Source: Mobula birostris (lineage: Eukaryota). From it: a stretch of DNA of 64,000 nt. Shown here one piece after another: positions 18,876-58,631 of the stretch. Below the pieces are notes generated by a model, which had not been told where the DNA came from, searched no databases, and worked only from the letters and a program-made list of their open reading frames with translations. Made by a program: the position numbers and the translations under genes. The DNA is taken from assembly GCF_030028105.1 (NCBI RefSeq), contig NC_092391.1, positions 25,083,223 through 25,147,222 of the forward strand, in the 5' to 3' direction. How positions within the stretch are numbered: position 1 is the stretch's first letter; each line of letters begins with the position of its first letter.

Positions 18876-19606
18876 CACAACACACTGGAGGAACCCAGCA
18901 GGTTGGGCAGCATCTGTGGAAAAGATCAGTCAACATTTCGGGCCGGAATCCTTCGTCAGGACTGAAGAGGGAAGGGGCAGAGGCCCTATAAAGAAGGTGG
19001 GGGGAGTGTGGGAAGGAGAAGGCTGGTAGGTTCCAGGTGAAAAACCAGTAAGGGGAAAGATAAAGGGGTGGGGGAGGGGAAGCAGGGAGGTGATAGGCAG
19101 GAAAGGTGAAGGAGGAATAGGGGAAAACACAATGGGTAGTAGGAGGCGGCGGAACCATCTAGGTAGTCTCCAGCCCCTTGGTATGATCATAGAATTCTCC
19201 AACTTCCGGTAATTCCTTCCCCCTCCCTTCCTCTATCCTTATGTCACTCTGCCCCCTCCTCCAACTGCCTATCACCTCCCTCATGGTTCTGCATCCTTCT
19301 ACTACCCATTGTGCTTTCCCCTATTCCTTCTTCACCTTTCCTGCCTATCACCTCCCTGCTTCCCCTCCCCCACCCCTTTATCTTTCCCCTTACTGGTTTT
19401 TCACCTGGAACCTACCAGCCTTCTCCTTCCCACCCTCCTCACACCTTCTTTATAGGGCCTCTGCCCCTTCCCTCTACAGTTCTGACGAAGGGTTCTGGCC
19501 CAAAACGTCGACTCATCGTTTCCACGGATGCTGCCCGACCTCCTGAGTTCCTCCAGCGTGTTGTGAGTGTTGCTTTGACCCCAGCATCTGCAGATTATTT
19601 TGTGAT
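18876..19606. mobile_element. Penelope-like element, inverted-repeat form with two hammerhead-like motifs
   Basis: ~280 bp inverted arms; 13 bp TSD AACACCTGAGATT at 18863-18875 and 19607-19619. Confidence 0.85.
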
Positions 19607-19702
19607 AACACCTGAGATTTGGAGGTCAATTGTCCAGCTTCACTTCCCCTCCTTATAAAGGATAGAGATGCAAACTTCAGAAATCAAAGCCTAAATTCAT
19701 AC

Positions 19703-19860
19703 CAGCAATCAACGAAGGCTCAGTTGGGTGGAATGCTAGACACATGACAGCACTGGAAACATAAATCACAACGTCTGGTCGATTTGGGTTTAATCCTCTA
19801 CGATCCAGATTCCAGGTACACACATAAGATTTCTCTGTGCTCCAGTCACCATCCTGCAAC
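19703..19860 (-). CDS. DYNC2I2: WDR34 coding exon 3
   Basis: [55 protein letters not shown] acceptor, GTATGA donor; 158 nt. Confidence 0.95.
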
Positions 19861-20559
19861 CTGTAATTAAGTTTAATATCCATTAACTATTATTCTGGGC
19901 AGCTCAAAAAGAACTTTAACACCAGAAGTAGAATGCAAACTTACAGGTTCAAATATTCATCATATTTGATGGAACAATACAAAGGCAATTGGTGACCCAG
20001 TCACAAATTAGAAAGTATATCAAATGAACTGCACAAAAAAAATGAAGTATTGCATATCTAATAGCGGTGTCCTCCAGTCCCTCTTATTCTGCTTTATGAT
20101 TTGGATCGGTAGAGTACCAAGCAGATATGTTGAAGTCACTTGTGACAACACAGAAATCAGCAGTAACATGGAAATGGATTGTTCTCATGATCCATAATGT
20201 TCACTTGGATTAATCATCCGGGAACTTCGGAACAATGTACAAAGAAGAATACTCTAAGCAATGTATTTGTTTAGTATCAGCTTGATCTACAATACTGAGT
20301 GAGAAAGCAAGCTGAGATGGGACTTTGTTCGATTCGTAACAGGTATTATTCTGACAAACAACATGATACAACACATGAAATGAGATGACTGATGAAAAGT
20401 AGCATTTTTCCCCAATTACAGCAGCTATTCAATTATTTTTGAAGTATTTGTTACTTCTTGCTATTTAAATTTGAAACAATTGCTACAAAGATAAAAATAT
20501 CCTACTTCTTTATAACTGTTATTGCTTGTTAATATACAAATTAAGTTGAAATAAAACAA

Positions 20560-20910
20560 GCTTGCTTGCATACAGCAATTTTTCTAAGAAATGTTCAGGA
20601 TTTCCACGTGCTGTTCAGGCATCTAATTACTCTTAAAGCACAATCACAGTTGTAATGAAGGTGAACAATTTGGCCAAAACTAAAGAAAAACGATCTAGTA
20701 TTTTAATGATGTTAGTTGAAGCAAGCAGGACAATGAACTTGTTTCTTCACACCTAGTTAAAAGGCAGTTTAATACATCTCATTTGAAAGACAACACCTCT
20801 GATAATAATGCATTATGTCAGAATACAGTCAGGCGTCAACATTGATTTCGTTCTCAGATATTTCTAGAAGACTTGAACCCAACTAAAGAGCAAATCCATT
20901 GAGACTGAAT
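20560..20910 (-). mobile_element. Ancient DeuSINE (SacSINE/AmnSINE-like) remnant
   Basis: catctcatttgaaagacaacacctctgata...gacttgaaccca matches the remembered family consensus. Confidence 0.55.
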
Positions 20911-22129
20911 CATAACACAGTGATAAAGGCACTTAATGCAATGACTAATGTCTTCAATACCACTGAAATAAACGTGGAATAAACAACATCTTTACCAACT
21001 CCTGGGAATCCTTAGCCCATGACTATTCAGAGACAAGACTTTTGAATATTACTAGCGTCAGGTCCACACATTAGGAGTGCACGGATACCCAGCATAAGCT
21101 GCAGAAGCAGCACAACAACTTGTAAGCTACCCACCCATCTATCCCATAGAAGCACCACCTGTCCCAAGTGTGATAGAGTCTGCAGATGCTACATTGGCCT
21201 CATCAGTTATCCCACAGAACCAGAGTGGAAGCAAGTCATATTCAATCCCAAGGGGCCACCTAAGAAGAAGCAGTAAGTATTTATGAGTACAATAACAGCG
21301 CAAGGAACAATTTAGACAGGCAGATACGTTCTCCATATCGCACTACTTAAGTATCACTTCTTCAACCAACACCAAAAATAAATTGTTTTTTTAATCTCCT
21401 TTCCACTTTTGAGAAGCAAACTCACTGCTCCTTTTCCAGAAAAAAAACAATACTTCAAAAGGAATTTACTGTTTGTGAACCATTCCAGAACAATGAGAGT
21501 GTGATAAAGATACAATCAATAATTGTAGTTTATGCAAAACCAAATCTATTTTGCTCGCGGATTACCATTTCAAACTAAATGTTAAACATTTGGAGATTAG
21601 TTTTCAACTCATGACTTGAAACATCAAAAATACCTTTGCCTCCATAGGTGCTATTTAACCCAGAGTTTCTCCATCAGTTTGGGTTTTTTTTTGCTCCAGG
21701 CATCTGCAGTCTCTTAGGCCTCGATTTTACAACTCAACTGAACTCTCTTCAAGGTATGTCCACTTTGAAGTTTTGGCCTCTTCAACAGGAGATCTGCAAG
21801 TTCTCAATTGTTTATACTGCTCTCCTCCCCTTTGACAACATCCTTACCAAGGTTCACCACCTCCAGCCATGTGTCCTTTCTTGCTACTTGTCATCATTGC
21901 CATCTTGTGCCACGTGGCTTCCAACTCTGTTTTCAGGTCTCCCTGTTTGGTCCCAGCCTGGATTTCAGTCATGTACATTCAACTCACCACTTCTCTCAAG
22001 GTTTTTCCCCTCAGTACCCCATGCTCCACCATCTCCACTGTGTGTATACCTTATGTCATTTTTTAAAGTCTTCCCTTCCCTGCCAAACCCTTCATTTTCT
22101 ATATGTACTATTATCTGCTATTCTTTTAT

Positions 22130-57081: not shown

Positions 57082-57236
57082 TTATCTTTGATAAGACTTG
57101 GGCACCATGAGAAGTGTAGCAGCAAAGTTCTCTTGTAGAAGTCTGTCCATAATCAAGGCAATAAATGTCTCTTCAGATTCTTCAAATTCTTCATCTGTAA
57201 TGTACAGAGGCCAGATATCAGGCTGAAAAGACCACC
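57082..57236 (-). CDS. Secreted cereblon-like CULT-domain protein, last exon
   Basis: TTAG acceptor, then (G)WSFQPDIWPLYITDEEFEESEETFIALIMDRLLQENFAATLLMVPKSYQR-TAA. Completes the HLGWxF motif and the FxALI strand; phase matches exon A. Confidence 0.88.
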
Positions 57237-57399
57237 CTAATAAAAACAAAAACAGTCCATAAATGTGATTAGTCTTAGCCTTTTTCCAAGAAAGACATTA
57301 TATAATAGCAACAACAGAGTTCCCCAATGTTTTGCATTTTCATAAACAAAAGTTTAAACCAGGACAAGGCCTAAACATAAAAGGTGGCTTGGTAACAAT

Positions 57400-58510
57400 G
57401 AATTTGAAAGACAGGTGATGCCTTATGAGCCTGACTGAATTCTTTGAGAATATAATACACATTGACGAAGGTAGAACAAATTGTGTGGTGTATATGAATT
57501 CTAGTAAGATATTTGGTAAGGTTCCCTTTAGGCTCATTTATAAAGTCAAAGTATGATATCTAGGGAAACTTGGCTGTGTAGAAGAAACAGGGTGGTGGTA
57601 GATGAGTAAATTCTGCTTGGAGGTTGGTGACAAGTGTTGTTCGCAGGGATCTTCTGGGTCCCCTGCTGATTTTTTTTTAAATGTAAAGGATGCATTTGAA
57701 GTGGTTAGTACATTTGCAGCTAACACAAAGGCTGGTGGAGTTGTAGATAGGGTAGAGGGTTGTAGGTTGCAGCAGGATCTGAGTTGAGCTGAGAAGTGGC
57801 AGATGAAGTTCAACCCAGAAAAGTTTGAAGTGATTCATCTTGGAAAATATAATTTTTAGCCATGAAGCAATAGAAGGGTTTTAAGGTCCAGTCCATAAAT
57901 CCCTCAACGTTGCCACACAAGTTGAGATGCTTGTTTATGGTGTGTTCATTTTTATTAGTTGAGGGATTGAGTTCAAGAGCTGCGAGATAACATTCCCATT
58001 CTTTAAAACCCTGGTTAGATCACACAATATTGGGTTCAGTTCTGCTCACCTCATTATAGGAAGGATGTGGAAGCTCTGGAGAGGGTGCAGAGGAGATTAC
58101 CAGGATGTTGCCTGGACTAAAGGGCATGTCCTATGCAGATAGGTTGAGCAAGCTAGGGCTTTTCTCTTTGGAATGAAGGAGGTTGTGAGGTGACTTGAGG
58201 GATATATTCTGTGGACAGCCAGAGACCTTTTCCCAGGCAGATATGGCTAATACAACCAGGCATAACTTTTTAGATGAGGAAATTAGAGGTGAATGGTCAG
58301 AAGTTAGTTTTATTCAGAGTAGCTGGTAGTCAGTAGTATGCCCTGTCAGGGGTGGTGGTAGAGGCAAATAAGTTAGGGGCACATAAGAAACAGGTAGGAA
58401 CATGGATGATAGAAGCATGAAAGACTATGTAGGAGGGAAGGGTTAGATTGATCTTAGTAGGTTAAAGGTCAGCACAACATTAGGGGCAGAAGGGCCAGTA
58501 CTTTTCTGTG
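57400..58510 (+). mobile_element. CR1 LINE remnant in the intron of the CULT gene
   Basis: VSTFAANTKAGGVVDRVEGCRLQQDL and WAEKWQMKFNPEK-like motifs. Confidence 0.8.
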
Positions 58511-58539
58511 ATGACCTACATAAAAAAAAAAACTACAAA

Positions 58540-58631
58540 TAACACAAAATGCTAAGGGAACTCAGCAGGCTAAGCAGCATGTAAAAGGAATAAACAGTCG
58601 ACATTTTGGACTGAAACCCTTATCAGGACTC
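58540..58631 (-). mobile_element. Penelope-like terminal fragment with a degenerate hammerhead
   Basis: acacaaaatgctaagggaactcagcagg...cagtcgacattttggactgaaacccttatcaggact. Confidence 0.7.

Follow-up and report, generated by a model that had tools for sequence, protein, structure and literature searches.

Hammerhead ribozymes in the pseudo-long terminal repeats (pLTRs) of metazoan Penelope-like elements (PLEs) have been reported as type I motifs with a helix I of 4-5 bp, an extra base between positions 9 and 10.1 and a palindromic 15.2-16.2, present mostly as single dispersed motifs from truncated PLEs, with some opposite-strand pairs (Cervera and De la Pena 2014, PMC4209133). The same features recur in a 64,000-nucleotide stretch of the Mobula birostris genome (NC_092391.1, positions 25,083,223 to 25,147,222; hereafter the window, with positions counted from its first letter), where helix II is ~4 bp rather than the 7-8 bp of that report and where the youngest subfamily of copies, B, mostly has G.U at 10.1-11.1. 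The Neptune-clade endonuclease-containing (EN+) PLEs described by Craig et al. (2021, PMC8557442) share with the ray element one open reading frame (ORF) that holds reverse transcriptase (RT) followed by a GIY-YIG endonuclease at its C terminus, a CX2-5CxxC linker, a CxxC lying between GIY and YIG, partial tandems, inverted 5'-truncated copies and a 30-40-bp tail; Nematis shares the linker motif with Neptune in that account, and the copy number of the ray element is by contrast very high. The Anolis element Poseidon PAc (Frangieh et al. 2024, PMC11167929) likewise starts reverse transcription at two internal sites, ~100-135 nt beyond the ribozyme and bounding the tail, and uses uncleaved RNA as template, but it belongs to another clade, its ORF starts inside the ribozyme rather than ~170 nt after helix I, and it is not known to have a fixed 5' end at helix I. 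Finally, non-LTR retrozymes carry type I hammerheads from PLE pLTRs and were reported in one chondrichthyan (bioRxiv 10.64898/2026.07.22.740005), but are defined there by tandem repeats with at least two ribozyme units, whereas the copies in the window are solo or head-to-head.

Our analysis indicates, with high confidence, that the motifs in the window are minimal hammerheads of type I that belong to the pLTR of an autonomous Neptune-type PLE, were left by 5'-truncated, often inverted insertions and are likely inert at this locus. Earlier accounts of PLEs already cover the motif, its location in the pLTR, truncated and inverted copies and the tail; the locus is ordinary and the host-gene angle is weak. 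The one new detail, and the lead worth following, is a peak of copy 5' ends at helix I. A search of the published literature (Repbase and Dfam lay outside it) returned no report of PLEs with hammerheads in rays or of copies whose 5' ends lie at helix I, and the words 'Penelope' and 'ribozyme' are absent from the main text of a recent manta and devil ray genome preprint, whose supplementary repeat table may list PLE content. Copy junctions record both RT start sites and the probable RNA start at base resolution, and two open PLE questions, the purpose of the ribozyme and the origin of the inverted ends, thereby become testable.

A Neptune-type parent element

When the sequence upstream of 38209 was used as query, its copies ran on into an ORF containing YIDD, a cysteine linker and a GIY-YIG domain. 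At one locus of the same subfamily as the motif at 33875 (L061), this frame extends over 863 stop-free codons and holds an RT with YIDD, a C-x4-C-xx-C linker (CKRNKCYTC) and a GIY-YIG endonuclease with CVRCSRC, EH and THF; its C-terminal part matches the Pfam GIY-YIG model at 23.3 bits (cut-off 22.6), and a sister copy of the ORF gives a weak RVT_1 match. Homologues of the ORF numbered 518 among 8000 scored candidates, the closest named being bamboo-shark proteins (62-70%). The Penelope-like origin put forward in the original prediction is borne out by ORF remnants directly upstream of three window copies: the insertions at 19154 and 37866 retain the last codons of the GIY-YIG ORF, and that at 39770 retains pieces at 40867-39995. 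The CX2-5CxxC linker and C-terminal CCHH endonuclease fit Neptune or Nematis and would place the element in the Neptune clade; we call it Neptune-type.

The element comprises a 3' untranslated region (3'UTR), the hammerhead, a structured region of ~100 nt and an optional tail of ~36 nt, after which, in tandem copies, the RT/GIY-YIG ORF follows with its first in-frame ATG ~170 nt after helix I. Among 30 loci found with the 5' part of the ORF, four (L084, L087, L093 and L101) carry a same-strand hammerhead upstream of the ORF, and L061 has one downstream; the ribozyme thus stands before and after the ORF, which gives the partial-tandem pLTR layout. As in EN+ PLEs, copies are 5'-truncated and inverted, with an optional 30-40-nt tail and a target-site duplication (TSD). 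Their 5' ends are variable, their 3' ends lie at about +100 or +135 (clustering at +94-104 and +127-141) and their TSDs measure 11-15 nt. In 42 random copies assigned to subfamily B, 5' starts spread from -2694 to +60, those near 0 including older subfamilies whose alignment begins only at the ribozyme. Conservation of 70-73% between subfamilies is also found in the 100 nt that follow the ribozyme (33913-34010 in the window, with counterparts in every subfamily), and an 8-bp helix joins ~+52 with the tail, a candidate protein-binding or RT-start structure.

By the Anolis PLE work, the RT-endonuclease would nick the target and start reverse transcription inside the RNA at two sites. The RNA template would be uncleaved, because copies run through the cut site, and two cDNAs joined by microhomology would yield head-to-head pairs. 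Selection would maintain the ribozyme in active source elements alone, and cutting would require either a dimer or protein from the element.

Ribozyme fold and copy number

The ribozyme is real at the level of the element lineage, and single copies decay. The CUGANGA/GAAA core, the extra base after A9 and an NUH cut site are present in the motif at 33875 and in 44,985 genomic copies, the latter being the result of the genome-wide count proposed in the original prediction, run as an exact pattern for core-intact motifs. Exact patterns read backwards gave no match genome-wide, nor did the descriptor and the hidden Markov model (HMM) on reversed sequence, so that the motifs do not arise by chance. 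Between single representatives of three subfamilies, the 38-nt hammerhead is 82-84% identical, compared with 78% at the ORF end and 54-57% in the 3'UTR. Applied to 80 metagenome loci whose ORFs are related (best-segment identity 36-63%), the descriptor found 13 motifs, 12 of them on the ORF strand, and none in the reversed control; they sit just after or before the ORF and their helix I sequences are wholly different. Helix III is palindromic in most of these relatives (ACGT, ACGCGT, AAATTT, AAGCTT) and is ACGT in the ray, which bears out the minimal type I hammerhead with a palindromic ACGU helix III originally proposed. Four distant relatives (L298, L300, L301 and L304) have a 6-nt palindromic helix III (AAATTT, AAGCTT) and NUA cut sites. 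Compensatory change in helices I and II was scored in seven motifs of equal helix III length, two from the window and five of the 13: pairing holds in 47 of 49 cells, with 13 double changes and none of 500 shuffles as high, the covariation being partly circular in that the set was preselected by a descriptor demanding pairing. At Rfam gathering score, no hammerhead was returned in the window; at E<=5 around 33875 there was again none, the matches being microRNA-hairpin models, hit because of the palindrome, and one weak unrelated match, all below gathering.

Copy number was also estimated from sixty 10-kb samples placed at round coordinates (600,000 bases including 10,200 N, hence 589.8 kb), in which the HMM found 100 copies, or one per 5.9 kb, and none in reversed sequence. 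Extrapolated to the 4.01-Gb genome, this gives ~680,000 pLTR fragments. The published figures are ~4,000 motifs in coelacanth and ~9,000 in Xenopus (PMC4209133); the counts in the ray are far above these, search methods differing between the studies. A head-to-head partner lies within 3.5 kb of 54 of the 100 random matches, and an ORF remnant at most 800 nt upstream of 20. With eight arms in 64 kb, the window is ordinary, its density being no higher than the genome average. Fifty-four of the random matches cover the motif from its 5' end (the other 46, in which the motif start or the downstream stretch was uncovered, were excluded); the core survives in 29, and core, palindrome and helices survive together in 16. 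Decay is mainly by CpG loss, with the lowest conservation at CpG columns, as the original prediction had it. The 10.1-11.1 pair is G-C in subfamily A and the relatives, and G.U in the 33875 motif and in 26 of the 54 random copies.

The palindrome at 33793-33964 was considered as a family with a fixed apex and rejected: the first sample was biased by the query, and only 174 exact copies exist genome-wide, against 56,351 subfamily B anchors with normal upstream sequence (exact pattern, none in the reversed control) and 445 loci whose junction lies 0-24 nt further up. The palindrome marks a microhomology junction that is favoured, one outcome of the helix I end. An automatic TSD search on the apex loci was unreliable because of ungapped extension. 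A seemingly constant A.C mismatch in the left arm of the palindrome also proved to be query bias, most of the matches listed having G.

The 5' end at helix I and the short units

About 14% of subfamily B copies begin at A or G, the first two bases of helix I. In genome-wide counts of the first mismatch upstream of TCC in this subfamily (positions -3 to -5 and those within TCC being uncounted), departure falls at G in 2,955 copies, at A in 4,924 and at T-1 in 4,535, then further up at T-2 in 1,450 and at T-6 in 690, and 45,332 copies run beyond T-6. The A class (8.2%) and the T-1 class (7.6%) stand against a background of ~1.2%, an excess of ~14% or ~8,000 copies. Ninety helix-I-start loci, taken from one contig in genome order and classed by pattern matching (wrongly, by eye, in a few: L308, L310, L331, L332, L352, L374 and L382), comprise 42 arms of inverted insertions whose partners are cut at varied places, 37 units that abut flanking DNA and 11 point mutants; 22 of the 37 have a TSD call, at about +97 or +132. 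The tiny TSD-flanked units of the original prediction do therefore exist, as a fixed-ended class of 100 or 135 nt, and fixed ends such as those of short interspersed elements (SINEs) characterize this minority class only.

The helix I start lies in the context YAGT; the pLTRs of other PLEs are reported to have initiator-like motifs or a promoter of internal type (PMC3846280, PMC2377424). The peak likely marks the RNA 5' end of the element: its transcript would begin at helix I, and run-off from priming close to this end would give the tiny units. We tentatively propose, as a possibility that we rate somewhat short of even odds, that the Neptune transcript starts at the first base of helix I in an initiator-like YAGT, that reverse transcription from the cap-proximal site 100 or 135 nt away runs off, yielding thousands of SINE-mimicking, ribozyme-only, TSD-flanked units without a master gene, and that the ribozyme sits at the head of the mRNA, where cutting would remove the cap and act as a protein-gated switch between translation and template. 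In two loci a helix-I-start unit is joined to an internal piece of the ORF, in reverse in L308 and directly in L331, which suggests template jumps from the RNA 5' end. Six of ~40 loci with a base other than A at helix I position 1 (L341, L342, L354, L377, L382 and L391) have G there with the 3'UTR continuing, and this G may be ordinary mutation or template editing.

A peak of this kind might instead come from an RT stop, from snap-back of the cDNA or from a 3' splice-site-like signal, a possibility we regard as real and somewhat doubtful. The cDNA can self-pair across helix I, and the junctions of L356 and L358 run through this 4-nt match; on the other side, the breakpoints of most inverted partners are scattered over many other positions, and the fixed end therefore stays on the helix I arm whatever the partner. 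In subfamily B, a branch-point-like heptamer, a pyrimidine tract and an AG end precede helix I and resemble a 3' splice site (for example L061:8325-8356), and a D. virilis intron is reported to end at helix I (PMC4209133); we considered spliced copies and rejected them, no upstream exon being shared among the 30 loci compared all against all. The original prediction went further in another direction and read the short units as a separate non-autonomous ribozyme family. As a self-propagating family, whether SINE-like or retrozyme monomers, they would have an internal promoter of their own and be mobilized in trans by the PLE protein, in keeping with the units that abut flanking DNA with a fixed 5' end and 3' ends near +97/+132, with the internal promoter of D. 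virilis Penelope (PMC2377424) and with the report that rotifer pLTRs suffice for mobilization in trans (PMC3846280). We judge this improbable. The copies are collinear, variably 5'-truncated pieces of the autonomous element, and the short ones have no private variants: the six commonest combinations at five sites occur in short (76) and long (33) copies alike, in what is a small sample. About half of the helix-I-start copies form part of an inverted insertion as one of its arms, two are fused to pieces of the ORF, and no tandem array lies over any motif in the window, which thus lacks the head-to-tail arrangement of retrozymes. Because variant combinations are shared with long copies, the short units read as by-products of the Neptune-type element rather than as a lineage.

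Besides the circularity of the covariation, several points count against the interpretations given here and below. The Neptune label rests on linker motifs rather than on a tree. The proportions of variants differ between short and long copies (p=0.025), the long set being biased towards one subfamily. The helix I peak could be an RT stop or a microhomology effect, and a cap-derived extra G is unclear, with 5 G and 3-4 C by eye among 16 TSD-defined junctions. As to activity at the locus, equilibrium folding ignores co-transcriptional folding and protein chaperones, and the matches on the RNA side are contigs of uncertain type that show no RNA ends or cleavage.

Insertions in the window and their host introns

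All seven hammerhead motifs reported in the original prediction were reproduced in position, strand and stated changes, and tblastn confirmed that six lie in introns 1 and 3 of WDR34 (DYNC2I2) and one in an intron of a gene with a CULT domain (Table 1). As separate units they did not hold up: self-comparison of the window assigned them to five insertions, the motifs at 18927/19477 and 33845/33875 being paired arms of single head-to-head insertions, each pair within one TSD, and revealed a further degenerate insertion at 26629-26822 that had been overlooked. The motif at 33875, described earlier as intact, is the best preserved in the window and the only one to pass all features, with G.U rather than G-C at 10.1-11.1. 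At 39770 the core is intact as proposed, but helix I keeps only three of five pairs and helix II has an A.C mismatch; at 33845 the cleavage site is indeed gone, and so is the 5' strand of helix I. Nor are the insertions uniformly tiny: 18876-19606 spans ~730 nt, 37866-38298 spans ~430 nt, and the 39704 copy reaches ORF remnants to ~40870. TSDs of 12-15 nt, some mismatched, flank four of the five window insertions tested (the 39704 copy was left out), and none was found in that test at 58542-58631, which looks like an old, tiny helix-I-start unit.

Table 1. Host genes and PLE insertions in the window
Feature	Position	Strand	Remarks
WDR34 (DYNC2I2) coding span	4080..44610	-	Host gene
WDR34 exons	44610-44269, 24706-24596, 19862-19701, 12629-12513, on to 4080	-	From tblastn
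CULT-domain (cereblon-like) gene	57085..62327	-	Two matched coding exons, 62327-61926 and 57240-57085
Subfamily A inverted tail-less arm	18876..19158	-	3'UTR and hammerhead 18927-18964 (helix II mismatch, AUGU instead of ACGU, U17); sense to WDR34 intron 3
Subfamily A direct arm	19154..19606	+	Last codons of GIY-YIG ORF (stop at 19210-19212), 3'UTR, hammerhead 19477-19514 (without G12), tail; 13-nt TSD of 18876-19606 at 18863-18875 / 19607-19619
Old head-to-head insertion	26629..26822	.	Degenerate hammerhead 26690-26727 (+); 12-nt TSD, one mismatch
Subfamily B inverted tail-less arm	33794..33879	-	Hammerhead begins at CUGA, ACAC instead of ACGU; sense to WDR34 intron 1
Subfamily B direct arm	33875..34017	+	Hammerhead 33875-33912 and tail; antisense to WDR34; with the preceding arm a 172-nt palindrome inside a 14-nt TSD (33780-33793 / 34019-34032)
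Subfamily A 5'-truncated copy	37866..38298	+	GIY-YIG ORF end 37866-37949, 3'UTR, hammerhead 38209-38246 (U16.1 kept, ACAU instead of ACGU), no tail; TSD imperfect
Old copy	39704..40871	-	Hammerhead 39768-39805 (core intact, helices broken), 3'UTR, decayed RT-thumb/linker/endonuclease remnants 40867-39995; sense to WDR34 intron 1
Old short copy starting at helix I	58542..58631	-	Hammerhead core broken, G8 and G12 changed; sense in CULT-gene intron

The original prediction also held that sense copies might pair through ACGU and cut WDR34 and CULT intronic RNA. Four copies (18927, 33845, 39770 and 58595) are indeed sense to host introns, dimers of minimal PLE hammerheads have been reported as weakly active in vitro (PMC4209133), and with ~45,000 core-intact motifs some cutting somewhere in the transcriptome is possible. 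At this locus, cutting of host RNA, by accident or as host regulation, is nonetheless highly improbable in our assessment, and the window copies probably do not do it. All four sense copies are damaged in helices or core and none passes all features, and the well-formed 33875 motif is antisense to WDR34. The only sense copy to keep both core and ACGU, 39770, has broken helices and no intact partner; copies lie kilobases apart, and an ACGU duplex is worth ~-1.7 kcal/mol. Folding in 400-1000 nt of context gave helices I and II a probability of 0.00 in each of the seven reported copies. The motifs at 18927 and 33845 are predicted to be locked in long hairpins, the minus strand of 33780-34030 folding as one hairpin (-165 kcal/mol, z -20), and in isolated 33875 the core is predicted to pair with the cut site. 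The density of copies in the window, being no more than average, gives this idea no help. Published work points the same way: no activity was seen in monomers of minimal PLE hammerheads (PMC4209133), the ribozyme of Anolis depended on protein from the element and its cut site coincided with no RNA-seq read ends (PMC11167929), and eight of nine Xenopus dimers were uncleaved, with one active (bioRxiv 10.64898/2026.07.22.740005). Four contig sets, whose type is guessed, cover the element including the stretch from ribozyme into ORF; they show neither ends nor strand and count neither way, and no GT..AG joint occurs among the matches listed.

Other effects on the host transcripts can be envisaged. 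The head-to-head insertions at 33793-33964, 18875-19567 and 26629-26786 would form 80-280 bp of double-stranded RNA in WDR34 pre-mRNA and, with over half of copies paired head-to-head, could provide major substrates for editing or for small RNAs in rays. A pyrimidine tract and AG similar to those noted above stand before helix I at 38180-38211 and 39803-39830 in the window, and in host introns the sense copies might be used as cryptic acceptors.

The 33875 insertion is itself nested in a DNA-transposon-like element at 33500-34900, with a transposase-like frame at 34299-34679 (-) that has no Pfam match; this element may be hAT-like. A related palindromic short element lies at 198-432. Intron 1 of WDR34 also holds, at 27061-32069 (+), a fragmented two-ORF long interspersed element with endonuclease- and RT-like frames, L1/Tx1-like by eye. 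The matched part of the CULT-domain protein is identical to a protein labelled Mobula birostris. A further gene, divergent from WDR34 and presumably SET to judge by synteny, is suggested at ~45200-53000 by a GC-rich start together with an acidic repeat (52552-52681, +).

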